Of a stretch of 64,000 nt of DNA, positions 2,781 through 64,000 are shown piece by piece (position 1 is the first letter of the stretch; every line of letters begins with the position of its first letter). The DNA is from an uncultured Clostridia bacterium. GTDB lineage: Bacteria > Acidobacteriota > Blastocatellia > UBA7656. The notes under the pieces were generated by a model that was given only the letters and a program-made list of their open reading frames with translations, had not been told where the DNA came from and ran no database searches. Position numbers and translations under genes: made by a program. Location of the stretch: NCBI GenBank assembly GCA_964615905.1, contig CAZTUB010000002.1:154538-218537 (forward strand). The letters run 5' to 3'.

Positions 2781-2832
2781 TCATTTCTTACCGCTTTTGC
2801 TTTCCTCCCTCCGTTTCCATAAGATAATCGAG

Positions 2833-27394: not shown

Positions 27395-27403
27395 ATCTCG
27401 CCA

Positions 27404-27523
27404 ATTCTGACCGTCTGTCCTGGGTTTGTCAAGATTATACCTGAACAAGCTTGTAGTATACGCTTCGATGTCTAAGATAAATCCAGGATAAATCTTGACA
27501 GAGGTCTCCTGGCTGTCTAAGCT
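27404..27523. promoter_or_regulatory. Divergent sigma70 promoters overlapped by 11-bp-periodic repeats (putative CarH operators)
   Basis: Plus strand TTGACA(27495)-17-TAAGCT with TCTAAGATAAA / TCCAGGATAAA / TCTTGACAGAG repeats. Minus strand TTGACA(27432)-17-CAGAAT with CTTGACAAACC / CAGGACAGACG. Confidence 0.65.
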
Positions 27524-27580
27524 TGGGGTGAATGTAATGTCGTCAGGTTCAAAGAATCGGTCGGGCAAAGGAGAGCGAAC

Positions 27581-28486
27581 GTGAAGATATTGATGACAGG
27601 AGCAACAGGGTTGATCGGGCAAAATCTCTGTCAAGCATTGACGGGTGAAGGTCACACTGTTGTGGCGCTCTCGCGTTCGCCCTCGGCTAATGGGGTTGCC
27701 GCCGAAGCTGTTTACGCGTGGGAGCCGCAGGCGGGGCCGCCGCCTGTTGAGGCTTTCGAGGGGGCTGAAGTGGTTGTCCATCTCGCGGGCGAGTCTATTG
27801 CCGCGCGGCGCTGGACTGACGAGCAGAAACGCCTCATAAGGGATTCGCGCATAATCGGCACGAGAAACCTTGTCGAAGGTATAATCAGGGCCAATCCTCG
27901 CCCGGCAGTATTTGTCAGCAGCTCGGCCGTCGGGTTTTATGGAGATCGCGGCGACGAAGTTCTCGACGAAAGCTCTCCGGCGGGCGCAGGGTTCCTGCCC
28001 GAAGTCTGCCAATCCTGGGAAGCCGAAGCGTTGCGAGCCGAGGGGGCAGGCGTTCGCGTCGCGCTCATCCGCACCGGCGTAGTTTTGAGCTCTGAAGGCG
28101 GCGCTCTCGAAAAGATGCTCCCGCCTTTCAAGCTCGGCGTAGCTGGACCGCTCGGCAGCGGACGCCAGTGGTTTCCCTGGATTCATATTGACGACATTGT
28201 CGGGATATTTCGCGAGGCGATCTTTTCAGCGAAACTTCGAGGCGCTGTAAACGGCGCTGCGCCCGGCATTGTGACCAACCGCAAGTTCACGCGCCAGCTT
28301 GCGGGCGTGCTTAACCGGCCCGCTTTTATACCCGCGCCGGAATTCGCGCTGCGGCTGATGATGGGGGAGATGGCCCAGATCGTCCTCGACAGCATGCGTG
28401 TTGTGCCCAGGGCGGCCAGCGCTGCGGGATACAGCTTCAAGTTTGCAGACCTTGAGCATGCACTGAGAAATCTCTTAAAAAAATAG
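27581..28486 (+). CDS. TIGR01777-type NAD-dependent epimerase/oxidoreductase
   Basis: TGATGLIG, VVHLAGE...RRWT, SRIIGTRNL, LGSGRQWFPWIHIDD and GAAPGIVTN motifs. Confidence 0.9.
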   Translation: MKILMTGATGLIGQNLCQALTGEGHTVVALSRSPSANGVAAEAVYAWEPQAGPPPVEAFEGAEVVVHLAGESIAARRWTDEQKRLIRDSRIIGTRNLVEGIIRANPRPAVFVSSSAVGFYGDRGDEVLDESSPAGAGFLPEVCQSWEAEALRAEGAGVRVALIRTGVVLSSEGGALEKMLPPFKLGVAGPLGSGRQWFPWIHIDDIVGIFREAIFSAKLRGAVNGAAPGIVTNRKFTRQLAGVLNRPAFIPAPEFALRLMMGEMAQIVLDSMRVVPRAASAAGYSFKFADLEHALRNLLKK

Positions 28487-38691: not shown

Positions 38692-38873
38692 CCTGACCTC
38701 CCGAACTGTCTCTTTATCTTCTCTACGCCATCCCTGTGGCCAAGGTTGCGCCGCAGGCCGAAAAAATAGACCGGCCGCAGATTGCTGTCGCGCGGCGATC
38801 ATAGAATCAGGCAGCTTCAAGCCTCGCGCCTCGTCGCGTGTGATCGATACGGGTATGCTCTTGTTTTAATCTG

Positions 38874-46515: not shown

Positions 46516-48381
46516 TTGAGCAATACGATTATGCAAGACCTTGTCAGTCGAAAACCGAGCGCAGTGCTGCGCGATCTCAACGTCTTGGTTCCCGCCGAAG
46601 AGGTGGCGGCAGCAGAGCGCATATTGCCGCTTGCGGTCAGCCTGAGCGGCTCGGCAAAATCGACCATCTCGCTGATAGGCGTGACGCCTATCGGGCGCGA
46701 CGTGTCGCTCAGCGAAGGCGCAATCTCGGCCCAGCGCTTGCGCAACGACCTTGAGACTCTTGCGAGCGAAAGCCCGCGCATAAACCGGCTGGCCGGCAGC
46801 TTCGTCTCTCATCAACCCTGGGAAGACATCGAAGCGTTGATCGACGAGCGCATGCAGGACAACGACCTGCTGCTGCTCGCCTGGCAGCAAGACAAGACAT
46901 ATTTTCAAGCGGACCTGGCGGAAGTCTTGCGCGACCCTCCCTGTAATGTCGCGGTCGTAAACCCGATGGTCGACCCGCGCGACATACGCCGGATATTGCT
47001 GCCGGTTCGCGGCGGCCCTTACGCGAACCTGTCGCTCCAGCTGGCGATACGGCTCGCGCGGTCTGCCAACGCCGAAGTCACGCTCCTTCGCGTGGTCTCA
47101 AGCGACGACGACCCGATGAGCCAGGTGCTCAGAGAGAAGTTCACCGGGCTTTCGGACGCCTTCCCGGAGATCACCACCGAGCTACAGATCGTCGGCGACG
47201 CGGGAACGGCGGTCGTCCGCGCGCTGAAAGATCATCAAGCGATTATTCTCGGAGCGAGCGCCGCGCACGACGGCCCGCCCATAGGGTTGATGGCCAGCAT
47301 AATCCTTCAGCGCAAGGACGTGACGACGCTGCTCGTAAAGACCAAAGAGCCGTTTCGCCTGCCCGCTTCGACCGCGCGGCGGGCCAACCTGCCCGTGCTC
47401 GTGCGCGTAGAGAAATGGTTCGCCGAGAATACATTTCACAGCAAAGAGTTTTCAGACATCGACCGCCTCATCGACTTAAAGAGGCAGCAGAACCTTCGCA
47501 TAAGCCTCGGTCTTCCCGCGCTCAACCAGGAATCGACCATAGGAAACCTGATTCACTCGATCAAGCGAAAGCTCATGGACGACGCGCCGCTCCTTGATGA
47601 GATCGTGTTGATCGACGGCAACTCGACAGACTTCACGCGGAAGATTGCCGCAGAGCTTGGCGTCCCCCCATACATCCATCAAGAGATACTGCCGAGGCTC
47701 GGCAGCGTACGAGGCAAGGGCGAATCGCTGTGGAAAAGCCTCTACCTTTTGAAAGGCGATCTGATCGTCTGGCTGGACACGGACATCGTGAACCCTCACG
47801 CGCGAATCGTCTACGGCATACTTGGGCCGCTGTTGATGAATTCGCACATACAGTACGTCAAAGGATTTTATAAGCGGACGATCAGGTCGAGCGGCGAAGT
47901 TCTCAGCGCCGGAGCGGGCACGGTGACTGAGCTTCTGGCGCGGCCGATGATAAACCTCTTCTTCCCGGACCTGTCTGGGGTGATAGAGCCGCTCGCGGGT
48001 ATTTACGGCGGGCGGCGCTCCGCGCTCGAACAGGTCCCGTTCTACACAGGCCCCGGAGTCGAGGCAGGGTTGCTGCTCGACTTGCTTGATAAATTCGGGT
48101 TGAAGTCTTTAGCTCAGGTCGACCTTGAGGATGTAGAGTATCGCAGCCAGGATGAGCGCGCCTTTGGTAAGATGTCGTTTGCGATCTTGCAGGTCTTCGC
48201 GCAGCATCTGAAGCAGAAAGGTTTGATGGACGCGGGGGCGCAGATGGAGCGAACCATGAAGCGGCTGCGCGTTGAAGATGACCGCTTCTACCTGGAAGAG
48301 ATTGACGTTCACGAACAACAACGCCCGCCGATAATCGAAGTGACGGAGTATCGCGGTCGCTACCGCCCGCGACTTTCGTAA
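46516..48381 (+). CDS. gpgS: Fusion of two USP-like domains to glucosyl-3-phosphoglycerate synthase (GT-A)
   Basis: N-terminal USP-like segments (RILPLAVSL; RRILLPVRGGP...LAIRLA). C-terminal LPALN..TIG, IDGNSTD, GKGESLWKSL, DTD, YVKGFYKR, GTVTELLARP, EPLAG. Start is uncertain (TTG 46516 or ATG 46531). Confidence 0.82.
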   Translation: MSNTIMQDLVSRKPSAVLRDLNVLVPAEEVAAAERILPLAVSLSGSAKSTISLIGVTPIGRDVSLSEGAISAQRLRNDLETLASESPRINRLAGSFVSHQPWEDIEALIDERMQDNDLLLLAWQQDKTYFQADLAEVLRDPPCNVAVVNPMVDPRDIRRILLPVRGGPYANLSLQLAIRLARSANAEVTLLRVVSSDDDPMSQVLREKFTGLSDAFPEITTELQIVGDAGTAVVRALKDHQAIILGASAAHDGPPIGLMASIILQRKDVTTLLVKTKEPFRLPASTARRANLPVLVRVEKWFAENTFHSKEFSDIDRLIDLKRQQNLRISLGLPALNQESTIGNLIHSIKRKLMDDAPLLDEIVLIDGNSTDFTRKIAAELGVPPYIHQEILPRLGSVRGKGESLWKSLYLLKGDLIVWLDTDIVNPHARIVYGILGPLLMNSHIQYVKGFYKRTIRSSGEVLSAGAGTVTELLARPMINLFFPDLSGVIEPLAGIYGGRRSALEQVPFYTGPGVEAGLLLDLLDKFGLKSLAQVDLEDVEYRSQDERAFGKMSFAILQVFAQHLKQKGLMDAGAQMERTMKRLRVEDDRFYLEEIDVHEQQRPPIIEVTEYRGRYRPRLS

Positions 48382-48412
48382 GGCAGGGGCCGGGGAGGCT
48401 TGAGGCCGAGGC

Positions 48413-50284
48413 ATGTCTATTGTCCTGGACCAGATAACAAAACGCTACGGCAACCAGCTCATCGTCGATAGGGTTTCGCTCGAAGTATCGGACGGGGAGC
48501 TGTTCGTGCTGCTGGGCGCATCGGGCAGCGGCAAGAGCACGATCCTCAGAATGATCGCGGGCCTTGTAACGCCCGACAGCGGGCGTATACACCTTCACGG
48601 GCGCGACGTTACTGAGCTTCAGCCGCAACAGCGCGGGACCGGTTTTGTCTTCCAGAACTACTCGATCTTCCGTCACATGAGCGTCGCGGAAAATATCGAG
48701 TTCGGCTTGAAGATAAGAAAGATGACCGCCGCCGACCGAAAACAGCGCCGCGAGAGATTGCTCGACCTCGTAGGGCTAGGCGGGCTGGGCAATCGTTACG
48801 CGAGCCAGCTTTCGGGCGGCCAGCAGCAGCGCGTCGCGCTCGCCCGCGCGCTCGCATACGAGCCGGGCGTGCTGCTTCTAGACGAGCCTTTCGGCGCGCT
48901 CGACGTGAAGATTCGCGCGCAGCTGCGCCGCAGCCTCAAAGAGATTCAACGAAACCTCGGCGTCACCACGATACTAGTCACACACGATCAAGAAGAGGCG
49001 TTCGAGCTGGCCGACCGCATCGCCGTTCTTGAGCGCGGCCGGTTGCTCGAAGTCGGTGAAGGCGAGGCGCTATACTCGCGCCCGCGCTCGCTGTTTGTCG
49101 CGACCTTTCTGGGAGCGGGGACAGTCCTCGTAGGCCACGCGGACAAAGGGCAGGCGCGGTTCGGCCCTCTGTCGATGCCCATACCCGATACTGTGCCGCA
49201 CGAAGACGGGGCGCAGGTCCAGTTGCTCTTCAGGCCGGAGCAGGTCACGTTGAGCGAAGAGAAGCCGCCTGATGGCGCGATGGTTTTAGGGCAGGGCACG
49301 ATCATCGAGCAGAGCTTTACGGGGTCGAGCCAGCGAGTGCGGCTGAGAGTGCCGCGCATAGCGGCCACGCGCCAGGTCGCTCCCTCGGTCCCGTTTGGTG
49401 AAGAGGGCTTGCTCATAGACGCTATTGTGCCGCCGGGCCTGGAACTCTATACCAAACCGCTATGGGTTTCTATACGCGGCTGGCATATTCTCAAACAGCC
49501 GCCGCCGCGCCTTATGGTCTTTGATAACGGCTCGGAATCGAGCGCGACGCTCGGCATGGCTCGCTGGCTGGTCGAGCGGCTGCGGGCTTCGGCCACACTA
49601 CTCACGGTCGCAGAGAGCCCCGAAGCGGCCGAGCGCTTGCGCGAAAAGCTAAAACAGCGACAACAGCAGACAGGGCTTACAGATGCCGAGCTGAGAATCC
49701 GATTCGGCGACGCCGCAGAGCAGATAGCCGCTGAGCAGAACGAGACGCTTTACGAGGTGATAATGCTTGCGCCGAAGATCAAACGATTCTCGGTGCAGGA
49801 CAGGCGCACGGACGGGCTCGGCACGACCACTGCAAAGGTGTTGAAGCACGCGGAAGTGCCCGTGCTCCTGGTAAAAGGGGCAGAGCGCGAGGTGCGGCGC
49901 ATATTGATCTGCACGGCGGCGGGCGAGCCGGGCAAAAGCGATGTGAGGGTGGGAGGCCGTCTCGCGCGGCGGCTTGGCGCGGCGGTGACGCTGCTTTATA
50001 TCACCAAGAACACCTTAGAGCCGGGCAGCCTTGCGCGCACGCATCTTGATCGCGCGGTCGCTACGCTCAGGGCGGGCGATATAAACGGCGAGGTGCGCGT
50101 GCGCGAGGCGGCGGCCCCGGCCGACGGCATACTTGCCGAAGCGAGCGAAGGCGATTACGACCTGATAGTCGTCGGCGGCCACGTCCCAAAATCGCGCTCG
50201 GTCTTTCGCATAGACAACGTGACCATGCAGGTCATGACAGGGGCCGACCGCCCGGTGCTGGTCGTGCCCACGGCCGATAGTTAG
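48413..50284 (+). CDS. cysA: CysA-type ABC ATPase fused to two C-terminal USP domains
   Basis: [30 protein letters not shown] and LDEPFGALD, then TOBE-like region and two USP repeats ending in PVLLV / PVLVVP. Confidence 0.85.
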
Positions 50285-52484: not shown

Positions 52485-53081
52485 ATGACCGCCGAAAGTA
52501 AGAAAGCTGACCGCAGGTCGTCGCGCACGCGGCGCTCTTTGCGAGATGCCTTGATCGAGCTGATCCTTGAGAAGCGCTACGACTCTATCACAGTGCAGAA
52601 CGTAATCGACCGGGCGGACGTCGGGCGGTCGACCTTCTATGCTCATTACCGCGACAAAGAAGACCTCTTTTTAAGCGACTGGGAAGCGATGCTCGACCGG
52701 TTCGCCCGGCGCATAGAATGGCATGATGCAAGCGCGCACAGCATTGTCCCGATAGCCGGTCTGTTTAGCCACGTGCAGGAGGCGCACCATTTTTACCTGG
52801 CGATGGCCAGGTCGAGAAAGACCGATTGGCTCTTTAAGACAGGACAGAGTTACCTGAAGCAGAGCATAGAGAATTCGCTCGCGCCGTTCCTTGCGGACAA
52901 GCCCCGTCCGTCGGTGCCGAAGCCTCTCCTGGCGAACTATCTTGCGAGCGAGATACTGGCGCTGCTCAGGTGGTGGCTCGATAACAATATGCCTTACACG
53001 CCTGAGCGGATGGACGAGATTTTTCACGAGCTGGTGATGCCAGGGTTTCGCGCAAGCTTAGGAGCCGGGCAGGATGATTAG
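52485..53081 (+). CDS. TetR/AcrR family transcriptional regulator
   Basis: RTRRSLRDALIEL...ITVQNVIDRADVGRSTFYAHYRDKEDL HTH. Confidence 0.92.
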   Translation: MTAESKKADRRSSRTRRSLRDALIELILEKRYDSITVQNVIDRADVGRSTFYAHYRDKEDLFLSDWEAMLDRFARRIEWHDASAHSIVPIAGLFSHVQEAHHFYLAMARSRKTDWLFKTGQSYLKQSIENSLAPFLADKPRPSVPKPLLANYLASEILALLRWWLDNNMPYTPERMDEIFHELVMPGFRASLGAGQDD

Positions 53082-54314
53082 CACAGACGGCGTGTTTTGA
53101 GGGTCGTGAAGCCGCAGGTAATAGTATCCGATTCCGGCGAGGCCGAGCATGAGATTTGGCGCTTCGCCGCCCCCGTTGACGCCGCAAGGCCAGGCAAACC
53201 TGTTCTTCATAAATTGCTCGGCTCCAAGCACGCCTATCTGATCGGCGACCGCCCTGTGCTCGCCGTTTTCAAGCACCGCGCTCGCATATATCAACAGGTC
53301 CGCGTTGCCCGCGTTTCCATGACAGAGCGAAAAATTATTATGGTTATGATAGGTCAGGTTCCTTGTCGTGGTTCTGATAGCTGCTTCCGCTTCGTCGCGG
53401 TAAGACTGGTCGCCGGTCAGCTCAAAGAGCCTCAATCGCGAAAGCCCTATGCCGGGCGCTCCGTGACACCAGGCGACCATATAGCTGAGCGATTGAGCGG
53501 ATGATTCCGAAGTCGCGGTGTAGTTGCGAAGGTCCGGCCAGTTCTCCTGTTCGGGGTTGTACCAGCGCCTTTCATAATAGATGGCCTGCTCGGCTGCGAC
53601 GCGGAACTTCTGCTGCTCGGTTTTCTTGTACAGCTCGAATAACGCCCACGCTATGCCGGCCGTGCCGTGCGAAAAGCCTGTCAGGTCGGGTTGCTGCAAC
53701 TCGGCCGGGGTATTGAATGTGTTCCAGGACCAACCGGCGGCGGTCTTTCTCGCGGCAGCGATGAGGTGCTCTCCGTGCCTGATCGCTTCGTCCAGCAGAT
53801 AATCGTGCCGGTACTTCTGATGGATATTCAGCAGCACGGGAATCACGCCCGCGCTGCCCGCGATAATATCGAGGCCGCTTGCTGATACCTCTTCTTTGGC
53901 TAGGTTTTTAAGGATGCGCAAACCCTTCTCTACAAGCTTTGCGTCGTCGAGTACCTCGCCGATCTTGATAAATGCGTACGCGACGCCTGCGCGCCCGGTG
54001 TAAAACGCCCCGCGAGTTATCTGAGGGATGTCGTCCAATCTCGACGAGCTTTGCCGCAAGGCGGCCTCGGCGGTGAGGCGAAACATCCTCTCGCCCGTCG
54101 CCCGGTACAGGTACGTAAGGTAATAAGCGATCCCGCTCGTGCCGTTATAAAACTCGGGGCCGAATGCGCGGTGTACGAGCGTCCAGGCATTACCCACCGG
54201 CTCGAAAGAATCGCCGAGCCAGTTACACCGGTCTCCTGACCACATGGCGTCGCGGCACAACCTCGCGCCTATGTAATCGGCCGTCTCAATAAATATATCG
54301 CTCGGTTTACTCAT
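53058..54314 (-). CDS. lanC: Stand-alone LanC-like lanthionine cyclase
   Basis: YNGTSGI, DIIAGSAG, GFSHGTAGI (catalytic His), WCHGAPGI and LCHGNAG (Cys/Cys-His Zn ligands), LMLGLAGIG. Confidence 0.9.
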   Translation of the reverse strand: MSKPSDIFIETADYIGARLCRDAMWSGDRCNWLGDSFEPVGNAWTLVHRAFGPEFYNGTSGIAYYLTYLYRATGERMFRLTAEAALRQSSSRLDDIPQITRGAFYTGRAGVAYAFIKIGEVLDDAKLVEKGLRILKNLAKEEVSASGLDIIAGSAGVIPVLLNIHQKYRHDYLLDEAIRHGEHLIAAARKTAAGWSWNTFNTPAELQQPDLTGFSHGTAGIAWALFELYKKTEQQKFRVAAEQAIYYERRWYNPEQENWPDLRNYTATSESSAQSLSYMVAWCHGAPGIGLSRLRLFELTGDQSYRDEAEAAIRTTTRNLTYHNHNNFSLCHGNAGNADLLIYASAVLENGEHRAVADQIGVLGAEQFMKNRFAWPCGVNGGGEAPNLMLGLAGIGYYYLRLHDPQNTPSVLIILPGS

Positions 54315-54320
54315 CGTTGT

Positions 54321-55358
54321 TCAAGCCTGGACGCCTGGGAATGTGTAGACGTTTTGCGACCCCGGATTCAGGTAAGCCCGTTCGAGGTCGATCCGGTAAT
54401 CTTGAAACTGCTTTACCACCTCCTGCAAACGCGCGTGCTCTGTCTTCGCGTCGTGGTTGTGAGCGCGAACTATCCCTTCCGCGAGTATCCGCGAGCGCTG
54501 CGTGCCGAAGCTGTCTTTGTCGCCGGGGTCTTCGGCGAACCCCAGCCCTCGCGCGAGCCGTTTGGCAAAGAGCGGCGTGTCGGGCAACAGGTGCTGCCGG
54601 ACGCTTCTGTGCACGTCTGTCAAAAGCTCCGTCGTTATTCGATAATACCGCTTGCTGACATACAAGACTGCGGAATCGAGCCGCGTGTAAGAATCGGGCG
54701 TCGTCAAACACTTAAACCGAAACGGCAGCTGAAAGCGATTGAGAGATCGGGTAACATGCCGCATCAATTCGGGCGCGCCTGCGGCCTCGACGTTCCAGTA
54801 AAAACGGACAAGGTTGTAATCGTTGGCGTCGTCGATCATCGCCTCGCTAAAGGCCATGTAAAAACCCGGCTGTAGAGTCCTCGACTCTTTCGGGGAAAAG
54901 ACCCTTATGGTTGCGCCGACTCTCAAGGGCATGCCGGGGCCGTCGAGCGTGATAAATTCACCCGCCCAAAAGCTGCGGCTCACACCGTTTTTTTGTGCGG
55001 CTACCTGGCCCGACGGAAGGATTTGAACGACCTGCCACCCAAAATCCCACCGCTCGCGGCTGGCGTTAGCGTCGGACAGAAGCTCGATGAAATCGTTGTC
55101 GGGCGAAGCGCCGGGCCGGTCATCGGGAAGGTCGCCGGTAAACTTATGACAGAAGCAGTAGAAGTACAGATAGTTCGTCAGCAGCGCGACGAGCGGGCTT
55201 TCGGTCTCGACAGGGATAGAGATATTAGCAGGCATGGCCGACTGGTCTATGACGCGGCCACCGAAAGAGAACGAAGTCGGCGACAGGATCGTAACGGCCT
55301 TCAGAATCTTGCGTATCTCTGTGACTACCTGACTTGCCATCCTTACCTCGTCGCTCAC
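54321..55358 (-). CDS. HopA1-like protein (putative phospho-Ser/Thr lyase, LanY-type)
   Basis: RFYWN, FRFKCL, RLDSAVLY, GLGFAEDPG and SFGTQRSRILAEG. Translationally coupled to an APH kinase and a LanC. Confidence 0.8.
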   Translation of the reverse strand: MSDEVRMASQVVTEIRKILKAVTILSPTSFSFGGRVIDQSAMPANISIPVETESPLVALLTNYLYFYCFCHKFTGDLPDDRPGASPDNDFIELLSDANASRERWDFGWQVVQILPSGQVAAQKNGVSRSFWAGEFITLDGPGMPLRVGATIRVFSPKESRTLQPGFYMAFSEAMIDDANDYNLVRFYWNVEAAGAPELMRHVTRSLNRFQLPFRFKCLTTPDSYTRLDSAVLYVSKRYYRITTELLTDVHRSVRQHLLPDTPLFAKRLARGLGFAEDPGDKDSFGTQRSRILAEGIVRAHNHDAKTEHARLQEVVKQFQDYRIDLERAYLNPGSQNVYTFPGVQA

Positions 55359-56449
55359 AAACCCAGCAGCTCGGTTATCGCCTCGTCCGGGCTTTCGAGA
55401 ATATTTAAGCTGACCTGAAGAAGAGAGATCGCGTTGGGCGTTATATGCGGCGACGGGCTCATGTGCTCGTAAACGGTCTGGATCATCCGCGCCGCGCCGT
55501 ACCGCACGCTTTTTTTAAGCAACTCCCTCAGGGTTTTGTTGTCGGCGTCCAGGGACTCCGTGTATGACATCCAGAAAGCTTTTATCGCGGGCTGCATGTC
55601 GTCGATAGGATACTTTGCCTGGTCCATAAGCTGTGAAGGCGGAACGCCAGCGACTGACGGGATAGACAAAAGCCAGCAGGTGATATACGCCTGGAAGATC
55701 GCGCCCGCGTCCCAGCACGCGTCGCCTATGTCGGCCAGCTCCCAATCGACAATCTTTAAGCCCGGCTGCTGGTCGCCGTTCTTGTACAAAACGCAATTCT
55801 CCCATTTTATGTCGCCGTGGATTAAGCAGTTGAACTCGTACTGGTTTTGAAGCCCGTTTAACATCTCGTGGAATTCGGGGAAGCTCTTGACTATGTTGAT
55901 AACCTCGGAATTAGCCGCGCTTATCGGCTCTAAAAAATTCGGGTTCAGCTGGTGCAGTTGCAGAATCCACGGCATGCGCTTCTGAAACAGGGAGATTTTG
56001 GCACTGCCCTTGATCTTCTCGGTTATGTCGCGATGAAACCGGCCCAGGAGCTTGCCGACTTGCGCGGCCGTATCGGCGGGAAATTTGCCGAGCCGCGCGT
56101 GGTAATCGGCAAGATTTTCTCCGTCCTTTAACAACTCCACGACAAGTATATGCCTGCTCGCGTCGTAATCGTGATAACGAGGCATAAGCGGAACGAGCGG
56201 CGCGAACTCTTCGTCCGATTGCGAGAGCTGGTATGTGGTGGCTTCATACTGCAATGTGATGATGGCTTGCTGATCCCACGTCTTGATCTGCTTTAAGAAA
56301 AGGCCGGGGCTGTGGTCTCTCAGGACCATAAAGTTTCGATTGCGGAGCGATTTTTCGACCACGCGGAAGTCGCCGTCGACAACCGATTCGTAAGTTATCA
56401 GCCCGCGCCCCAAAAGATAATGCGCGATGTTTGCCGCCGTCAGTATCAT
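55355..56449 (-). CDS. Aminoglycoside phosphotransferase-fold kinase (putative LanK-type peptide kinase)
   Basis: RNRNF, LFLKQ, LIHGDIKWEN (Brenner motif) and VDWELADIGD motifs. Confidence 0.85.
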   Translation of the reverse strand: MILTAANIAHYLLGRGLITYESVVDGDFRVVEKSLRNRNFMVLRDHSPGLFLKQIKTWDQQAIITLQYEATTYQLSQSDEEFAPLVPLMPRYHDYDASRHILVVELLKDGENLADYHARLGKFPADTAAQVGKLLGRFHRDITEKIKGSAKISLFQKRMPWILQLHQLNPNFLEPISAANSEVINIVKSFPEFHEMLNGLQNQYEFNCLIHGDIKWENCVLYKNGDQQPGLKIVDWELADIGDACWDAGAIFQAYITCWLLSIPSVAGVPPSQLMDQAKYPIDDMQPAIKAFWMSYTESLDADNKTLRELLKKSVRYGAARMIQTVYEHMSPSPHITPNAISLLQVSLNILESPDEAITELLGL

Positions 56450-56613
56450 AAAATCTCAGGCTATCGGATGTTATTCCACTTACTCTCGCCTATGCGCACT
56501 TTTGTGGGAAGCCTTCCGGTATGGAAAGCGGGTATATGTCTTTCTAACGAGATTAATCGCAACCTTGATCGTCTGCGGTTATATCAGAAGTTGAACCCCC
56601 ACAGCAAGAAGTC

Positions 56614-56649
56614 GGCAAGTCTCACTATCGCGAAATAGCGAGACTTGCC
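56614..56649 (-). terminator. Stem-loop between precursor and modification genes (attenuator or RNA-stabilising hairpin)
   Basis: GGCAAGTCTC-A-CTAT / ATAG-C-GAGACTTGCC, 21 nt downstream of the precursor stop. Confidence 0.7.
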
Positions 56650-56669
56650 TTGACGAGGTTACACGGCTG

Positions 56670-57896
56670 CTAATAGCAGCACGCGGTGTGAATGCCCGAA
56701 CAGGGTTGCTGTGCCGTGGGCGGGCAGCACTGAGTGTAGACGCCTGAGCAAGGCGGTTGAGTGATTATGCAGCACTGCGTGCGAATGCCGGAGCAGGGTT
56801 GGTGCGAAATCGGCCCCGGGTCAGGACAGCACGCCGTGTGAATACCAGAGCACGGCTGTTGCGCCGTGGGTGGACAGCAAGCCGTGTAGATGCCTGAACA
56901 AGGAACCTGCGCTGTCGGCGGGCAGCACTGCGTGCGGATGCCCGAACATGGCTGGTGCGAAATCGGCCCTGGGTCAGGACAGCACGCGGTGTGAATGCCC
57001 GAACAGGGTTGCTGTGCCGTGGGCGGGCAGCACTGAGTGTAGACGCCTGAGCAAGGCGGTTGAGTGATTATGCAGCACTGCGTGTGAATGCCGGAGCACG
57101 GCGGCCGCGAGATCGGTGCGGCAGCCTGCAAAGCGTCAGCCTGCAAGCAGCACTGCGTCTGTATGCCTGAGCAGGGCTGGTGCGATACCGGGCTGGGGCA
57201 GCATTGGGTCTGGACCCCTGAACACGGCGGGGCCGAGACGAGGGCCTGTCCCTGCGGGCAACATTGCGTCTGGACTCCCGAACAGGGAGGGTGCGAGACG
57301 ACGCAGCATTGCGTGTAAACGCCTGAGCAAGGCGGGGCGGAGACGAGAGGCCCGACCGCCTGTGCGCCCACTGCTCCCGCCGGACAGCACTGCGTCTGAA
57401 TACCTGAGCAGGGCTGGTGCGATACCGGGCTGGGGCAGCATTGGGTCTGGACCCCTGAACACGGCGGGTGCGAAATTACAGGGCCGGGACAGCACTGCGT
57501 CTGGACTCCTGAGCAGGGTGGAGCGGAGACGGGAGTGGCTGCCTGCGCGCCCGTGCCGGCTTGATACTGCTGCTGTATTCGGCCCTCCAGAAATTTGGCC
57601 TTCGGTCGGTCACCACCGGCTTTCCCATGCGTCACATCCGCGTCGCGATTTATCCAGACATAACTGCCGCCAAGCGGCGACTGCTCTGCCGGAAGCTCGA
57701 CGGTGTGCAAAACCGCATCCTGGGGAATCTCTACGTAATCGCTCAATTGCGGATCGAGGTAGAGCCTTATGTGGTCTTCCTCAGAAGAGGCCCCCAAATA
57801 CCCCTGTAATAGCAACGCATCCGGTGGATTATTCGGGTCCTTGACTATCTGATCAACGAAGCTGGCTGTTTTGTTATTTCCTGTTTGTCGAGGCAT
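56670..57896 (-). CDS. Giant multi-repeat RiPP (lanthipeptide-like) precursor: ~120-aa leader plus 16 Cys/Ser/Thr-rich units
   Basis: GGAGGA RBS. Cys-free leader followed by 16 copies of P-C-S-G-[V/I]-x-T-[Q/A]-C-C. First gene of the kinase-lyase-cyclase operon. Confidence 0.85.
   Translation of the reverse strand: MPRQTGNNKTASFVDQIVKDPNNPPDALLLQGYLGASSEEDHIRLYLDPQLSDYVEIPQDAVLHTVELPAEQSPLGGSYVWINRDADVTHGKAGGDRPKAKFLEGRIQQQYQAGTGAQAATPVSAPPCSGVQTQCCPGPVISHPPCSGVQTQCCPSPVSHQPCSGIQTQCCPAGAVGAQAVGPLVSAPPCSGVYTQCCVVSHPPCSGVQTQCCPQGQALVSAPPCSGVQTQCCPSPVSHQPCSGIQTQCCLQADALQAAAPISRPPCSGIHTQCCIITQPPCSGVYTQCCPPTAQQPCSGIHTACCPDPGPISHQPCSGIRTQCCPPTAQVPCSGIYTACCPPTAQQPCSGIHTACCPDPGPISHQPCSGIRTQCCIITQPPCSGVYTQCCPPTAQQPCSGIHTACCY
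56677..57468. repeat. Exact internal duplications in the precursor gene
   Basis: 105 bp identical at 56677-56781 and 56980-57084. 66 bp identical at 57166-57231 and 57403-57468. Confidence 0.85.
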
Positions 57897-58227
57897 GAGT
57901 CGATTCCTCCGTCGAAGTGATTAACACCATGGGTGAGGTTCTTATGCCAAAGAATCGCAGAAGGTAATAAGTCTTACTGCCTTTGTTTGTACGTGCTATC
58001 ATCCGCGTCTCTAGCAAGATGCCTGCCCGTATTGGGACGCTTGAACCCTTGAGATTGCTGCGATACTAACTGAGAGACGGGCATTATAATCCAAATCACC
58101 GAATCTGAGAAGTAATGTTCGTTTCTTTCGGTCGACAAGGGCAGATCACATTGGACCCTGTTGGCAAGTAGGCGACAGATTCTGTTATGATGCCCCGGAA
58201 TCTACGAGCTGCGGAGTAATAGGATCA

Positions 58228-60012
58228 ATGGGCGAACCCAACAGGAAACGGCGTTTCTGTCTCGTGCTAATCAAGCCGTCGCATTACGACGACGACGGCT
58301 ACGTCATACAGTGGTTCCGGTCTGCTATCCCCTCAAACTCGCTTGCGGTGCTCAACGGGCTGGCGCTCGAAGCTGCCAAACAGAACGCGCTTGGCGACGA
58401 TGTCCATATAGACATTCATGCCTTTGACGAGACGAACACGCATATACGCCCTGCCCGCATCGCGTCGCTCGTGAAACGGGCCGACGCCGGAATGGTCATG
58501 CTCGTCGGCGTCCAGTCCAACCAGTTCCCGCGAGCGCTCGACATTGCGGCCCCTTTGCGCCGCCAGGGGATTCAGGTCGCCATCGGCGGCTTCCACGTCT
58601 CAGGCACTATCGCGATGCTCAAAGAGCAAGACCCGGATGTTTGCCGCGCGCAGGAGATGGGCGTGTCGTTATTTGCAGGCGAAGCCGAAGGCCGCCTCGG
58701 CCAGGTGTTGCGCGACGCCTGGGACGGGAGGCTCAAGCCGCTCTACAATTTTATGAACGACCTGCCGGACCTCGAAGGCGCGGCCATGCCGTTGCTTCCG
58801 GCCGACCGCGTCAACAGGACCGCGGGCGCGAATACGAGCCTTGACGCGGGGCGCGGTTGTCCTTATCAATGCTCCTTCTGCACAATCATAAACGTCCAGG
58901 GACGCAAATCGCGCCACCGCTCGGCAGATGATGTGGAGCAGATCGTGCGGGCAAACCTCGCGCAGGGGCTTCACAGGTTCTTCATCACCGACGATAATTT
59001 TGCCCGCAACAAGGATTGGGAGGCGATACTGGACCGGCTCATATACCTGCGCGAGGTTGAACGCGTCGAGATGAGCCTCATCATTCAAGTGGACACGTTG
59101 TGCCACAAGCTCCCGAACTTCATCGAGAAAGCCGCCCGCGCAGGCGTCAAGCGAGTCTTCATAGGGCTTGAGAACATAAACCCTGAAAACCTTATCGGCG
59201 CAAAGAAGCGACAGAATAAGATTACCGAATACCGCAAGATGCTGCTTGCGTGGAAGCAGGCGGGGGTTGTGACATATTGCGGCTACATACTCGGCTTCCC
59301 AAATGATGAGCCGGAGACGATCCTGCGCGACATCCGAATCATCCAGAAAGAGCTGCCGGTCGACCTGCTTGAATTCTTCTACCTTACGCCATTGCCGGGT
59401 TCGGAAGACCATCGCAGGCTGCACGAATCGGGGGTGTGGATGGACCCCGATCTCAACAAGTATGACCTCAACCACATTACGACAGGCCACCGAAATATGA
59501 CGCGCGAGCAGTGGGAGCAAGTCTACCGTTCGGCCTGGCAGACGTACTACACGACAGAGCATATTGAAACGGTGCTCAGGCGGGCCATGGCCACTCGAAC
59601 TAGCCCCGGCAAGACGCTCTTCTTTATCGTATGGTTCAAGGGCTGCATCGACATCGAGAAGATACACCCGCTTGAGGGCGGGTTCCTGCGCCTGAAGTTC
59701 CGCACCGCGCGCAGGTCCGGCCTGCCGCTTGAACCTGTCTGGCTGTTCTACCCGAAATATATCGTCGAAGCGATGTGGAAGCAGGTCAGGTGGGTATCGC
59801 TTTATTTGCGCCTGCGGCTCATCTACCTCAAGATCAAACGCGACCCGCAGCGTTACGACTATATGGACCTCGCGCTTGAGCCTGTGGCCGATGACGAGAT
59901 CGAAACCAGAGAGATGTTCCAGTCCGAGGTCGCTCAAACATACGTAGGCCGGGTGCAGCAGATTGAGAGGATGCGCAGGGGCGCGGTCTCAACGCCGCGC
60001 GCAGAGCAGTGA
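58228..60012 (+). CDS. Cobalamin-binding radical SAM protein
   Basis: N-terminal B12-binding Rossmann-like domain (VGVQSNQ; IGGFHVSG), GRGCPYQCSFC (CxxxCxxC), FITDDNF and IGLEN motifs. Confidence 0.9.
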   Translation: MGEPNRKRRFCLVLIKPSHYDDDGYVIQWFRSAIPSNSLAVLNGLALEAAKQNALGDDVHIDIHAFDETNTHIRPARIASLVKRADAGMVMLVGVQSNQFPRALDIAAPLRRQGIQVAIGGFHVSGTIAMLKEQDPDVCRAQEMGVSLFAGEAEGRLGQVLRDAWDGRLKPLYNFMNDLPDLEGAAMPLLPADRVNRTAGANTSLDAGRGCPYQCSFCTIINVQGRKSRHRSADDVEQIVRANLAQGLHRFFITDDNFARNKDWEAILDRLIYLREVERVEMSLIIQVDTLCHKLPNFIEKAARAGVKRVFIGLENINPENLIGAKKRQNKITEYRKMLLAWKQAGVVTYCGYILGFPNDEPETILRDIRIIQKELPVDLLEFFYLTPLPGSEDHRRLHESGVWMDPDLNKYDLNHITTGHRNMTREQWEQVYRSAWQTYYTTEHIETVLRRAMATRTSPGKTLFFIVWFKGCIDIEKIHPLEGGFLRLKFRTARRSGLPLEPVWLFYPKYIVEAMWKQVRWVSLYLRLRLIYLKIKRDPQRYDYMDLALEPVADDEIETREMFQSEVAQTYVGRVQQIERMRRGAVSTPRAEQ

Positions 60013-60032
60013 CCGGCCCCTGCGAGGGGTGT

Positions 60033-60566
60033 TTACTTGGTCCTTAGGTGGAAGAGGTAACATCTACAGCCATTTCCTCCCAGGAAGCATACGCCGGGGC
60101 ATTCCCCATTACAGTCTTCGCAAGAAGGGTAGTTGAACCGTGCGGGGTTCTCGATCAGGTCGATTATCGCGCCAATTTTCGGAAGCACTTTCAGCTTCCC
60201 GGCGGCGTGGCTGACCGTTTCTTTTTGGAATCTACGCTGGTTTGTGCCTTCGATCATGATGGTAAAGGTCTTGAGCTTAGGGTCGACCGCCGTGACCTTG
60301 CCGGTCATGGGCTCGGAGTCGGGGCGTCGCGCGTAGGGGCCGACGCAAAAATATTCCTGGTCGGGTACTGAGCTGCCCGACCAGAATCCGGTTCCCTCGT
60401 TGTCCCAACAAAAATAACGGTGGGCGGAGGACCATTCCTTTGCGCGCTGTATCGCCTCGACACTCTTGGGCGGGTCCTTCTGCGCCCGATTGTGCTGCGC
60501 TACGCCAGGACTGCTAAAGCCAAGCAGGGCTACGAGAGTCAAAGCCGGAACGAGTAATTTCTTCAT
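60033..60566 (-). CDS. Exported hypothetical protein with Cys-rich C-terminal tail
   Basis: AAGGAG RBS, signal peptide MKKLLVPALTLVALLGFSSPGVA, tail CEDCNGECPGVCFLGGNGCRC. Confidence 0.75.
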   Translation of the reverse strand: MKKLLVPALTLVALLGFSSPGVAQHNRAQKDPPKSVEAIQRAKEWSSAHRYFCWDNEGTGFWSGSSVPDQEYFCVGPYARRPDSEPMTGKVTAVDPKLKTFTIMIEGTNQRRFQKETVSHAAGKLKVLPKIGAIIDLIENPARFNYPSCEDCNGECPGVCFLGGNGCRCYLFHLRTK

Positions 60567-61332
60567 GGGAATATCTCCTTTCTTACTTCGACAGTTAGTA
60601 AGCGTTACTATTTGTCGAGCAGAGTCTTGCGAAGGCGTTGTTGAATACAACAGCGAGTCTGGACTAATCTTCTCGGTTATATCAGCAGCAGCTTGCGTTA
60701 ATAAGCGATATAATTCCGAAGAATTTAATGCCATTGATAGTATTTTATCCCTTAAGGCTTTTTCCGGGGTCGGAGGTGTCATACGAACACTTTTTCTAGG
60801 CATATGATTTTTCCCAGGAACCTTTTCAAAGTATTTCCAGAATCATAAAAAGACTTAAAGCCAACTATATTATTAGCAACCCTGCATATGATCAAATCAG
60901 TTATAACTGCCAATTCCTTTTCCTCATCTTTCCCTCGTGTTAATCGGGGCAAGAAGTCTAAGCAACTACTCCCGACTTCCTCCCCCCACCCACACCCGCG
61001 CCGCCACAAAGCTAGACAGGACGTTTCACGTTCGGTAATGGCTTTCTTCTCTCCTTTTGCGCGTGGCCGCAGATTTTGAGACCAGGCAAGGCGGTTAAGC
61101 TGCGCCTTTTCTCCTTCCCCTTTGCGGGCGGTCAAAACGGGGCTGGCTATCGGCATATACCCCTTTGCTACAAGCCTCTTGTGAGCCTCTATCAGCAGCG
61201 CGATAGCCCGTAGTGAAGCCCTGACGCTAGATGCTGAGATGTCTCTTTGTACCCCCTAGTAATAGATAGAATGGTGATTTCTGATAGAACTAGGTCTTTC
61301 TGAAGCGGCCGCGCTGTAACCTGGCGCTGGCC

Positions 61333-61824
61333 TTATGAACTTACATTGAAGCCTCTTATACCTTTACATATCCACCGGCCTGACCTTCTTCTACACTCAT
61401 ACTCTGTACCGCTATAACCATCCTTGGTTGTATATTGGCCCAGAATAATTCGTACTCTCTGTCCCTTGACTTCGGGCTTTGAAAACCGGAGGTACGCAAG
61501 CCGTTCCCCCCGCAAGCCTACCCGCTGGATGTGTTCAGGAGTAAGTAGGACCAACTTGCTCGGCGTAAGCCCTGTCGTAAGCGCCTCAGCAATATTCTCT
61601 GTTGAAAGGTAAATCGTCTGGTTCACACGAGACTCCCCTTTGCCAGCAAGCTCTCGTTTCAATAAGAGGCTTATTATCGAAGCCTTGTCCGTGCCACTGA
61701 GGGTGATTTGTTTCCCCTGAGCCGTAACACCAAAACCAAATGTGGACGAACTGATCAAGATCAAGGCGATCAGAGAGACTCTTATAAGAAACAACCCATA
61801 TCTCCTTTTGCCTTTTGTGACCAT
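61333..61824 (-). CDS. Exported hypothetical protein
   Basis: Signal or anchor segment, terminal Cys pair (ECRRRSGRWIC), AT-richer codon usage. Confidence 0.7.
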   Translation of the reverse strand: MVTKGKRRYGLFLIRVSLIALILISSSTFGFGVTAQGKQITLSGTDKASIISLLLKRELAGKGESRVNQTIYLSTENIAEALTTGLTPSKLVLLTPEHIQRVGLRGERLAYLRFSKPEVKGQRVRIILGQYTTKDGYSGTEYECRRRSGRWICKGIRGFNVSS

Positions 61825-61848
61825 ACCTCAGCCCGCGAGTTTGTAAGC

Positions 61849-61878
61849 GTCTAGCGCCCCGCATCACCCGGCCCGCAC
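61849..61878 (-). other. Degenerate attC-like 3' half-site
   Basis: Minus strand GGGTGATGC-GGGGC-GCTAGAC (R' box GTTRRRY with one mismatch), 25 nt before the downstream ATG. No matching R'' box found. Confidence 0.4.
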
Positions 61879-61962
61879 GTGATATTGGAGGCATCATTCG
61901 AGCTTCGGTTGTGGGCTCGGATACGCGCGAAGCACGCTTTCACATTTCACCAGGTAAAGGTT

Positions 61963-63084
61963 TTAGAGTTCGAAGCCGAGCGTCAGCACCTTAAGCTCGC
62001 CTCCTTCCTCAATAAAATAAAAATCAAAAACGCCACGCCTTAGATTATAAACTTCTACTTCTTTTCCAACTCCATGCATTTGTAAGCCATCGACTATCCG
62101 AAAGCCACGAGAGTCTTTATTATGGTCCGCCAAATTGGTTCTGTACCTGACCGTGTTGAAGAGCTCCTGAGGGAGATGCTTACGGAACAATGACGAGACA
62201 GCATTAGCTTTCGCAATAAATGCCTTTACTGGTATCAGCCTCATGTATTTCTCATCCAGTTTTATGCTGTAAAGCTCCTCTAATCCCTTCGTCACATCCA
62301 CTGGAAGTGTGAAGTCGTCATCCTCGGATTGCCATGTAGCCAGCCCATACTCCTGTACCATATAAAATATGTTCCACCACGCCAGAGCTCCTTTTCGCAT
62401 TAGAGCCTCGTCTATCTCCTTTTCAACTCCAGGGTCATAACCCAATCCGGCGATGAATCTATATATACTACGAAAATGATATGCGTTACGTCGCCGTTGC
62501 TCAGGGTTCGACACATACATCTCTTCAAATAATAGATTCATATCTAAAGTTTCATGCCATCGCTCAATAAATCGGTCGGCAGCAGCCTCAGCGCGCTGAA
62601 GCTTCTGTTCCTCTTCAGGAGTAAGAGGCCTTTGCTTTTCTTCCTTATCTTCGCCCTGTTTAGTATCAGGTACAGGAGTATCCGGATCAAAAGCTAAGCT
62701 TATAACCCCTGTGACCTTCACAGGTATTCCTTCAAGCATTGTTGGCTTGAACTTCCATTTACGGGCTGCGGCGACTGCAGAATCTTTCAGCAAAGCATGC
62801 CCAGATAAAGCCCTCGCAGATATAACATTCCCGCTTTCATCAATCATGATTTCCACCTTCACTGTGGCGGAAACTCGGGCTGCTAGCGCAAGGGGAGGGT
62901 ACTGGGGTTGGATTCGAATGACAGCCTCGGATTGCAGTATATCCTCAGCCTTCTGAATAGTTCTCGCTGGGGATGGAGGCTGCTGCTGTTGAGCAGATAT
63001 AGGACTGGCAATCGAAAATGCGACGACGGTGATAATTATAAAAGCAACTTTAGCTTTGAACTTATCTAAATAATTCATTTTCAT
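61963..63084 (-). CDS. TonB C-terminal domain protein with additional C-terminal domain
   Basis: Signal peptide; IQPQYPPLA...V.V.IMIDESGNVISARALSGHALLKDSAVAAARKWKFKP...V.GV. Confidence 0.85.
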   Translation of the reverse strand: MKMNYLDKFKAKVAFIIITVVAFSIASPISAQQQQPPSPARTIQKAEDILQSEAVIRIQPQYPPLALAARVSATVKVEIMIDESGNVISARALSGHALLKDSAVAAARKWKFKPTMLEGIPVKVTGVISLAFDPDTPVPDTKQGEDKEEKQRPLTPEEEQKLQRAEAAADRFIERWHETLDMNLLFEEMYVSNPEQRRRNAYHFRSIYRFIAGLGYDPGVEKEIDEALMRKGALAWWNIFYMVQEYGLATWQSEDDDFTLPVDVTKGLEELYSIKLDEKYMRLIPVKAFIAKANAVSSLFRKHLPQELFNTVRYRTNLADHNKDSRGFRIVDGLQMHGVGKEVEVYNLRRGVFDFYFIEEGGELKVLTLGFEL

Positions 63085-63126
63085 AATTCAACTTCTTGAA
63101 ATGTTTTTGAACCACCGCGCCCCTGC

Positions 63127-63187
63127 GCCTAACTATTGAGTAGACCGGCTAAAGTCGGTAGTATTACCTTTTTTAGTCGGTCTAATC
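63127..63187 (-). other. Hairpin ending in a perfect GTTAGGC box (attC-like)
   Basis: GAGTAGACCGGCTAAA / TTTAGTCGGTCTAATC imperfect inverted repeat. GCCTAAC at 63127-63133 reads GTTAGGC on the minus strand, 43 nt before the TonB gene start. Confidence 0.4.
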
Positions 63188-63387
63188 CGATTCATAATCA
63201 CCTATACCATAGATTTAAACCCCTTTAGGTCTCCCTCAACCGGATTATACCGATACTTCTTACATCTGATTTTTCTTTTAGTTCCGTTTTCCCTGCACAC
63301 TCACCTGCTGCCCTCACAAGTAGGCAATCCCAGCATTTTGACCTGGGCAGACCACGCTTATATAATCGTCTCTCTAAGGAGACAAGC

Positions 63388-63675
63388 ATGTCAATTTCCG
63401 GGCTTATAGAGAAGATCAAAAAGTATCAGGGCTGCGTCTATTTTAATGGGCAGGATTATGACGCTACAGACTTCGCGGCAGCAATGGCAGATTGGGATGA
63501 GGCTACAAGGCGGAACTTAGAAGGTAAATTGGACTACATTCTCGGAACTGCAAAACTCTACGCGGATTGTTTAAGCATACCTACCTGTGTCGATCCGAAG
63601 TACCCTTACGCATCAGTCAATATCAGTATGGATGGCAGTATTAAGTACACCTGGAAGAAGACCGGCTGCAAATAG
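63388..63675 (+). CDS. Hypothetical protein (95 aa)
   Basis: AAGGAG RBS and a complete ORF. No recognisable family. Confidence 0.55.
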   Translation: MSISGLIEKIKKYQGCVYFNGQDYDATDFAAAMADWDEATRRNLEGKLDYILGTAKLYADCLSIPTCVDPKYPYASVNISMDGSIKYTWKKTGCK

Positions 63676-63759
63676 GCAGCAGCCCATCAAACGCGCTATG
63701 CCCCCCTCCCATCCTCATCGGCCGCGCTCAGGCTACAGGCAATTAGCTACCTCTATACA

Positions 63760-64000
63760 CTCTTTGTCACACGGGCTCCGTCAATGGGAACGCCCATTGA
63801 TCCACGTAATGTCAAACGCCGCTTTGACTCTCTTCTGAAAAAGGCCAAGTTGCCGCATCACCGAATACACGACCTCAGACACTTTTGCGCGTCGTCGCTG
63901 TTAGCTCAAGGCGTACCGCTTAAAGTAGTTTCAGACATTCTAGGGCATAGTCAGATCAGCACTACGGCCGACTTGTACACTCACGTACTCCCTTCATTAC
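63760..64000 (+). pseudogene. C-terminal fragment of a phage/ICE-type tyrosine integrase (N-terminus missing; runs off the window)
   Basis: Frame reads LFVT...GTPIDPRNVKRRFDSLLKKAKLPHHRIHDLRHFCASSLLAQGVPLKVVSDILGHSQISTTADLYTHVL (HxxR, H and Y catalytic residues). An in-frame TAG at 63673-63675 removes the N-terminal domains. Confidence 0.85.

Follow-up and report, generated by a model that had tools for sequence, protein, structure and literature searches.

What does a lanthipeptide-type enzyme set act on when the gene ahead of it encodes a protein of 408 residues? Both the definition of lanthipeptides and the tools for mining them assume short peptides, and the characterized class V products found in the literature are short. 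The question is raised by a four-gene module on the minus strand of a 64,000-nt stretch of DNA (the window) from contig CAZTUB010000002.1 of an uncultured soil bacterium. The module encodes a precursor with 16 Cys-rich repeats, followed by a LanK-type kinase, a LanY-type lyase and a stand-alone LanC cyclase. Judged from sequences and structure models, it is probably, at a rough probability of 0.8, a class Vb-type lanthipeptide operon with the protein-sized, multi-repeat precursor as its substrate. What appears undescribed is the substrate; the enzyme trio is a known one.

Organization of the operon

The four open reading frames (ORFs) are all present on the minus strand, co-oriented and in the order precursor, kinase, lyase, cyclase (Table 1), as an earlier sequence-only reading of this DNA had proposed. 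Its account of the gene junctions was also borne out. The kinase and lyase genes share 4 nt (GTGA), and the lyase stop codon is followed after 6 nt by the ATG of LanC. A longer spacer, 220 nt, separates the precursor from the kinase gene. The precursor ATG is preceded, 8 nt to its 5' side, by the ribosome-binding site GGAGGA.

The precursor-kinase spacer contains a stem-loop. Direct folding of this hairpin gave a minimum free energy of -33.5 kcal/mol with a z-score of -3.8, and a comparable strong hairpin is found 3' of the precursor stop codon in 16 of 17 loci. It was missed by a terminator pattern scan because the stem is not followed by a T-run.

Table 1. Positions of the operon, its component features and other features in the window
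Feature	Position	Strand	Basis or remark
Precursor ORF, 408 amino acids (aa)	57896..56670	-	First gene of the operon
Conserved Cys-free leader domain, residues 1-107, ending in an F-L-E-G-R-I motif	57576..57896	-	Hidden Markov model (HMM) search
Repeat region, residues 124-407, 16 units	56676..57527	-	[S/T]-x2-3-P-C-S-G-[VI]-x-T-[QA]-C-C
LanK-type Ser/Thr kinase (APH fold), 364 aa	56449..55355	-	Pfam APH and NCBIfam LxmK model
LanY-type phosphoSer/phosphoThr lyase (HopA1 family), 345 aa, GTG start	55358..54321	-	Pfam HopA1
Stand-alone LanC cyclase, 418 aa	54314..53058	-	Pfam LANC_like
Sigma-70-like promoter candidate, TTCTCA-17-TATAAT, 10/12	58083..58111	-	Consensus match only; ~187 nt 5' of precursor start
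Putative attenuator or mRNA-stabilizing stem-loop, 16 bp	56614..56649	-	20 nt past precursor stop, within precursor-kinase spacer
TetR-family regulator	52485..53081	+	Pfam TetR_N, TetR_C_8; convergent with LanC, 24-nt overlap with its 3' end
B12-binding radical SAM gene	58228..60012	+	Pfam Radical_SAM; divergent from precursor, 331-nt gap
GNAT domain fused to ADP-forming acyl-CoA synthetase	2797-5511	+	
MerR regulator with B12-binding domains	26483-28186	-	
Duplicated MacB/FtsX permease	36259-38820	-	
Glycosyltransferase and ABC ATPase, each fused to universal stress protein domains	46516-50284	+	

The kinase, lyase and cyclase

HMM searches of Pfam and NCBIfam place the three enzymes, far beyond chance, in the families that the sequence-only reading had named (APH kinase, HopA1-like lyase and LanC). 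The motifs it had listed, HGDxxxxN and DWE in the kinase and GxxHG, WCHG and CHG in LanC, were all located in the sequences.

The kinase scores 25.6 bits against Pfam APH (PF01636), barely above the 23.2-bit cut-off. It matches the NCBIfam LxmK model with an E-value (E) of 6e-24 and 84.7 bits, a score below the 315-bit equivalog cut-off of that model. The AlphaFold 2 (AF2) model of the kinase, built on 40 homologs, has a predicted local distance difference test score (pLDDT) of 91. Its top fold in the PDB is LxmK from the LxmKY dehydratase complex (9dk3_A; E 1.7e-14, template-modeling score 0.72/0.76), and three LxmK structures lead the fold matches, before methylthioribose and choline kinases. 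Alignment of the 40 homologs showed that the residues K53, E69, H211, D213, N218 and D235 are invariant. Four of these lie in the motifs H211-G-D213-x4-N218 and D235-W-E237.

The lyase matches Pfam HopA1 (PF17914) with 140.8 bits (E 5e-41), and its best PDB sequence match is LxmY (9dk1_B; E 1.2e-5). The residues R185, K216 and R226 are kept in at least 97% of 121 homologs, and Y233 is present. The spacing of these four residues (31, 10 and 7) is nearly the same as that of R187, K219, R229 and Y236 in CaoY, where mutagenesis showed that R187, K219 and R229 matter for elimination (PMC9486802).

The cyclase matches Pfam LANC_like (PF05147) with 235 bits (E 1e-69) and the LanM C-terminal region (TIGR03897) with 314 bits. 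Its nearest kin is thus the cyclase domain of the class II LanM synthetases, and the best PDB match is the LicM2 cyclase domain (E 6e-28), with which the SHG, WCHG and CHG motifs align. In the window protein these motifs are G-F-S-H216-G, W-C283-H-G and C331-H332-G, and the residues H216, C283, H284, C331 and H332, which include the zinc ligands, are invariant in 13 loci. Thus, with active-site residues and motifs kept in each of them, all three enzymes look functional.

An HFCD decarboxylase (LanD), LanX, a second APH-type protein and an S-adenosylmethionine (SAM) methyltransferase were sought among the flanking ORFs by Pfam scans of 46.5-64 kb, and none was found. LanD and LanX are not in the conserved module of other loci either. 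The sequence-only reading had pointed to the lack of the decarboxylase and methyltransferase as a departure from actinobacterial class V clusters. The lack itself stands, with none in the flanks scanned. The absence of HFCD is not odd, since LanK/LanY/LanC is the published class Vb arrangement, which is defined by lacking this decarboxylase.

The precursor repeat region

The precursor has two unlike parts. Residues 1-124 contain no Cys. The remainder contains 16 copies of C-S-G-[VI]-x-T-[QA]-C-C with 48 Cys in all, after which only Y408 and the stop codon (56670-56675) follow. In every one of the 16 units a Ser or Thr is located 4-5 residues N-terminal of Cys1, and the repeat unit was therefore extended to [S/T]-x2-3-P-C-S-G-[VI]-x-T-[QA]-C-C. 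Each unit thus has 3 Ser/Thr and 3 Cys, and the region totals 48 Cys vs 49 Ser/Thr. It is 17% Cys, with CC doublets. The units are near-identical, and the spacers between them vary from 6 to 18 residues.

The DNA of the units is less uniform than the peptide. Six invariant motif positions are each encoded by 2-4 synonymous codons, and comparison of the nine motif codons across all unit pairs showed 411 synonymous vs 203 non-synonymous differences. Selection therefore acts on the peptide and not on the DNA repeat. A higher-order period of 153 nt, corresponding to three units or 51 aa, was detected by Tandem Repeats Finder at 56677-57056 (2.5 copies) and points to recent tandem duplication. Long ORFs at 57116..57844 (+) and 57136..57495 (-) are by-products of the tandem repeats and not genes.

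The CC-containing unit is common to the window and three related loci, L007 (6 units), L023 (18 units, 65 Cys) and L028. The number of units in close relatives, the window included, is 6, 16 or 18. The motif and the C-terminal end, ...CSGIHTACCY, are identical in L028, where the enzymes are 87-90% identical to those of the window.

A leader domain family

The Cys-free N-terminal domain belongs to a large family. A full HMM search with this domain, covering 1.84 billion representatives, returned 2,695 clusters at E <= 1e-3, of which 1,543 are at E <= 1e-10 and 224 at E <= 1e-30. A word-index search had given 10 mostly truncated matches, and the picture of a tiny family that it suggested was overturned by the full search. 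In the 156 members examined, which range from 115 to 816 aa, the domain lies at or near the N-terminus and almost never holds a Cys. The part after F-L-E-G is hypervariable and repeat-rich, with 10% Cys, 18% Pro, 9% Thr and 4.5% Ser.

The statistics of the variable part were taken from 122 cores of at least 100 residues. These have a median of 27 Cys and a median (S+T)/C ratio of 1.29, and the Cys-Cys spacing peaks at 7-8 residues. A Ser or Thr is present 5 residues before Cys in 43% of cases vs 14% in shuffled sequences, and 2 residues after Cys in 41%. The family archetype is thus C-P-[ST]-x4-C repeated head to tail, and the CC unit of the window is one variant of it. In L020 about 30 copies of the unit C-H-P-T-L-P-P-V abut without a spacer.

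Searches of Pfam and NCBIfam, including the NHLP (TIGR03793) and Nif11 (TIGR03798) models, gave no match at E up to 1 either to the precursor or to 29 aligned leader domains. The AF2 model of the leader shows a beta-rich core at residues 25-92 (pLDDT 86-88) and has an overall pLDDT of 70. A Foldseek search of the PDB with this only moderate model gave no significant match (best E 0.44), a null result that is no proof of a new fold because the mean pLDDT of the model is 70. The literature searched, with subscription journals outside its coverage, nowhere describes a protein-sized or tandem-repeat substrate of LanK/LanY/LanC, or the leader domain; Walker et al. (2020) make no mention of giant precursors. 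The substrate type is therefore, apparently, a large and undescribed family with a new leader domain. The sequence-only reading had not recognized the giant substrate from any characterized family. That judgment holds in so far as the precursor architecture appears undescribed, and the 2,695 leader clusters show that the window protein is not a one-off.

Conservation of the gene order

Related loci were collected in two directions. Starting from the leader domain, four genome loci (metagenome-assembled genomes (MAGs) of Acidobacteriota, from Terriglobia and Thermoanaerobaculia), 18 metagenome loci and three contigs from protein look-ups were obtained. Of the leader-found loci, 18 extend beyond the precursor stop codon, and in 17 of these the kinase gene comes directly next. 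The lyase and LanC genes then follow wherever the contig is long enough, with the exception of L024. In the reverse direction, loci were found through lyase or kinase homologs on long contigs. In 7/7 of these a large Cys-rich repeat ORF is immediately upstream of APH-HopA1-LANC_like. The leader domain is present in L026, L033 and L034, the contig of L028 is cut inside the repeats, and the other three, two Pyrinomonadaceae contigs and Cylindrospermum stagnale PCC 7417, are without the domain. The synteny holds in both directions, with homologs of the enzyme triad next to large Cys-rich repeat ORFs of the kind seen in the window. The order precursor-kinase-lyase-LanC recurs in about two dozen independent loci. 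It is kept across Blastocatellia, Terriglobia, Thermoanaerobaculia and a cyanobacterium, and the flanks are wholly different. Comparison of the flanks of 14 loci showed nothing conserved beyond the four genes, neither a protease nor a transporter.

The nearest relative, L028, has the same TetR neighbor as the window, and its lyase is annotated to a Blastocatellia MAG. Other close enzyme homologs carry the names Pyrinomonadaceae, Terriglobia or Acidobacteria. The relatives thus bear out the suggestion that the genome is acidobacterial.

Two Pyrinomonadaceae contigs (L027 4285-5565 and L025 4859-5566) have a 426-aa Cys/Pro/Thr repeat ORF upstream of the enzyme trio. The leader domain is not obligatory for such substrates, because this ORF has only a 27-residue N-terminus in its place. 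A more distant locus is found in Cylindrospermum stagnale PCC 7417 (CP003642.1; L029 4158-11427), where Peptidase_C1, a 527-aa ORF, APH, HopA1 and LANC_like genes are lined up. Long spacers lie between the six GSC[IY]G[VIL]FSCIA cores of the 527-aa ORF, which is without the acidobacterial leader domain. The three enzymes share 49-54% identity with their window counterparts.

Several contigs end inside the precursor (L004, L005, L009, L013, L016 and L021) or start in it or just after it (L028, L031 and L032). In L028 the gene caller mis-framed the precursor repeats. Because short-read assemblies often break in the repeats and the repeats are mis-framed, full-length precursors are under-represented and mis-annotated in databases.

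Proposed mechanism

In the proposed mechanism, the 107-residue N-terminal domain would dock the precursor to the enzymes. The LanK kinase would phosphorylate Ser/Thr residues of the repeat region, and the LanY lyase, probably bound to the kinase in an LxmKY-like complex, would eliminate the phosphate to generate dehydroalanine or dehydrobutyrine. The zinc-dependent LanC would then close (methyl)lanthionine rings by adding the Cys thiols to the dehydrated positions. With 3 Ser/Thr and 3 Cys in each of the 16 units, up to ~48 rings could form per chain.

Rings can be assigned within a unit by analogy with the ring sizes of nisin. Plausible rings are Ser(-4) to Cys1 (i+4), Ser2 to Cys8 (i+6) and Thr6 to Cys9 (i+3). 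The last two would overlap, like nisin rings D and E. Overlapping rings are the kind for which class Vb is said to need the cyclase. The hairpin after the precursor probably keeps the precursor mRNA in excess over the enzyme mRNA.

Weighing the interpretation

The assignment of the locus as a class V-type operon, in which the kinase, the HopA1 lyase and LanC act on the upstream Cys-rich ORF, had already been put forward in the sequence-only reading. It agrees with the LxmK fold of the kinase, the LxmY match of the lyase, the zinc ligands of LanC and the synteny. A number of observations weigh against it. The likeness to characterized enzymes is remote, with 18% identity between the kinase and LxmK in the structural alignment and a score of 27.6 bits between the lyase and LxmY. 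Dehydration, ring formation, ring topology and ring number are all inferred from homology. The locus shows no sign of the product's export or role. That the leader domain serves in recognition is a guess, and giant repeat precursors without this domain are found in the Pyrinomonadaceae and Cylindrospermum relatives. In addition, two loci depart from the pattern. In L001 (= L017; 179-2367) the leader-bearing ORF is short (188 aa, 2 Cys) and the kinase is not next to it; judged by eye alone, one neighbor resembles a membrane protein and another a transposase. In L024 there is no plus-strand ORF after the kinase. L001 is probably a decayed copy, and the two are treated as decayed or rearranged loci.

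The same enzymes could also serve a multi-core precursor of the cyanobactin or microviridin kind, from which a protease would afterward cut ~16 tricyclic lanthipeptides of ~13-15 residues; the difference from the favored reading lies in the end product alone. This is a serious contender, at somewhat under even odds. The units are near-identical, the spacers of 6-18 residues are variable, and the copy number differs among close relatives (6, 16, 18). The Cylindrospermum homolog has six cores, long spacers and an adjacent Peptidase_C1 gene, an M36 peptidase is encoded upstream in one metagenomic cluster, and microviridins provide a precedent (PMC5934393). However, the window cluster has no protease, and among the relatives a peptidase gene accompanies the module in just two distant ones. 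The 14 loci compared have neither a conserved protease nor a conserved transporter next to the module. Moreover, the spacers share no recurring cleavage motif, each of them supplies a Ser/Thr that seemingly is part of a ring, and in relatives such as L020 the units abut without a spacer. Since the module has neither protease nor exporter and the units of relatives abut, the analysis leans slightly toward a long polycyclic chain, rather than 16 excised peptides, as the end product of the class Vb-type operon. In its general form this is a tentative proposal, falling a little short of an even chance: that such operons make intact poly-lanthionine chains of 200-700 residues with tens of thioether rings (up to ~48 here, ~65 in relatives), and not small antibiotics.

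The Cys content of the repeat region (17%) and its CC doublets would also suit a metallothionein-like metal-binding or redox protein, with the enzymes acting elsewhere or with LanC adding glutathione as LANCL proteins do. LanC does match human LANCL1/2, and a preprint by Eyles et al. (2020) speculated that some HopA1-LanC systems may modify larger proteins or unclustered substrates (10.1101/2020.12.17.423248). Such a function is nevertheless very improbable. Blastocatellia, Terriglobia, Thermoanaerobaculia and a cyanobacterium all keep the gene order while their flanks have nothing in common, the positions of Ser/Thr and Cys are coupled, LanC is nearer to lanthipeptide cyclases (LicM2 E 6e-28 vs LANCL2 4e-12), and a precursor followed by a hairpin is typical of peptide natural-product operons. 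That the 408-aa ORF is not a gene at all, and merely an open frame of tandem repeat DNA, has a negligible chance. Other frames are open too, at 57116..57844 (+) and 57136..57495 (-), and the gene caller picked the wrong frame in L028. The frame, however, runs on without a break from the N-terminal domain that thousands of proteins share and starts with an ATG behind a GGAGGA ribosome-binding site; its invariant Cys, Ser, Gly and Thr are held through synonymous codon changes, and L028 has the same motif and the same ...CSGIHTACCY end.

Neighboring genes and window context

The TetR-family gene convergent with LanC is a possible local regulator. It was rejected as a member of the cluster, being beside it only in the nearest relative, L028. 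On the other side of the operon, membership of the radical SAM gene, which the sequence-only reading had not mentioned, is doubtful. B12-binding radical SAM enzymes methylate some modified peptides. The gene is not conserved beside the other modules, and only a 25%-identical homolog was found, 7 kb upstream in L003.

Beyond this gene the G+C content drops from ~0.58 to 0.51 and 0.46 over window positions 60000-64000. The ORF at 60033-60803 (-), for which Pfam gave no match, contains an internal stretch resembling a signal peptide and has a Cys-rich C-terminus. The low-G+C end of the window may be foreign DNA. The remaining window is ordinary Gram-negative chromosome; it encodes a porin, TonB, sensor kinases and the duplicated MacB/FtsX permease. 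Other features are listed in Table 1.

Significance

LanK/LanY/LanC regularly occurs together with substrates that are five to ten times longer than the short peptides by which lanthipeptides are known, and that have a new leader domain and dozens of cross-linkable sites. Among uncultured soil bacteria such pairs are common, with 2,695 sequence clusters counted for the leader domain alone. If the homology-based reading is correct, this substrate family would change the view of what class V enzymes act on. The family was probably missed because mining tools seek short peptides, assemblies break in repeats and the leader domain is without an HMM.

If the rings form as predicted, it becomes testable how one enzyme set handles ~48 sites per chain. 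The same is true of large polycyclic proteins as a product class of their own, and of their use in soil Acidobacteria. The homologous cluster of Cylindrospermum stagnale PCC 7417 provides a cultured experimental entry point, and the system could serve for making multiply stapled proteins. The poly-lanthionine chain, if true, would be a new ribosomal material, a rigid polymer resistant to proteases and redox conditions. The C-P-[ST]-x4-C repeat would then give a near-continuous string of rings, widespread in soil Acidobacteriota, and its function might lie in the envelope, the matrix, metal handling or elsewhere.

Comparison with known systems

Multiple cores and long leaders are known from other peptide families. 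The cyanobactin precursor PatE is multi-core, and the NHLP and Nif11 families have long leaders. The window precursor resembles these and the multi-core microviridin precursor MdnA (PMC5934393) in having several cores, a leader of domain length and a hypervariable C-terminal part. It differs in that there is no sequence relationship, the chemistry is different and no protease is conserved. There are also far more cores and sites for cross-links here, with 16 units and 48 Cys, and up to 65 Cys in relatives.

The order of activities, a kinase, then a lyase, then a zinc LanC, is that of the class IV enzyme LanL, and the cyclase is most similar to the cyclase domains of class II LanM (TIGR03897; LicM2). 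Unlike LanL and LanM, the window system has these activities on three proteins, with an APH-type kinase and a HopA1-type lyase in place of LanL's fused Ser/Thr-kinase and OspF-like domains.

In class Va, CaoK/CaoY of cacaoidin (PMC9486802) and LxmK/LxmY (PMC12141560, citing Randall et al. 2024) have been shown to dehydrate Ser/Thr. The window kinase and lyase are predicted to use the same two steps, phosphorylation and elimination, as CaoK/CaoY and LxmK/LxmY (lexapeptide, PDB 9DK1-3). Their genes are adjacent and translationally coupled, which is consistent with a heterodimer as in LxmKY. Class Va clusters, however, are without LanC and need LanD (HFCD) and LanX for aminovinyl-methylcysteine (AviMeCys), and the window is without both. 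In addition, class Va is actinobacterial with short precursors, and the window kinase is only ~18% identical.

Eyles et al. (2021) reported that 20% of HopA1-like proteins adjoin or are fused with LanC and proposed the same chemistry for them; these LanC-linked clusters are mostly from Proteobacteria, Bacteroidetes and Actinobacteria (PMC8153245). Their preprint noted that often no short precursor can be detected for the HopA1-LanC subgroup, and that its substrates might be larger proteins (10.1101/2020.12.17.423248). Large precursors were undetectable in that work because the search targeted short peptides. The giant repeat precursor and the leader domain of the window are both features that are not described there.

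The closest known system is class Vb. According to PMC11186320 (May 2024) and PMC12291118 (June 2025), class Vb consists of LanK, LanY and LanC, uses LanC to form (methyl)lanthionine, (Me)Lan, rings, and has mSmoA as its sole characterized product, in which two (Me)Lan rings overlap and a third ring is Lan. The window module likewise has a stand-alone APH-fold kinase (PF01636), a HopA1-type lyase (PF17914) and a zinc LanC, without LanD/LanX, and by analogy only (Me)Lan rings would be expected in its product. The three rings of mSmoA, two of them overlapping, match the three Ser/Thr-Cys pairs in each window unit. Both papers cite Pei et al. (JACS 2022) for mSmoA. The known class Vb substrate is an ordinary short peptide with one core. 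The window precursor, in contrast, has 408 aa and 16 cores in tandem, behind a folded-looking 107-residue leader that belongs to an unrelated family. The precursor shares with class Vb a core of Ser/Thr and Cys at the head of the operon, and its size and repeats depart from every described member.

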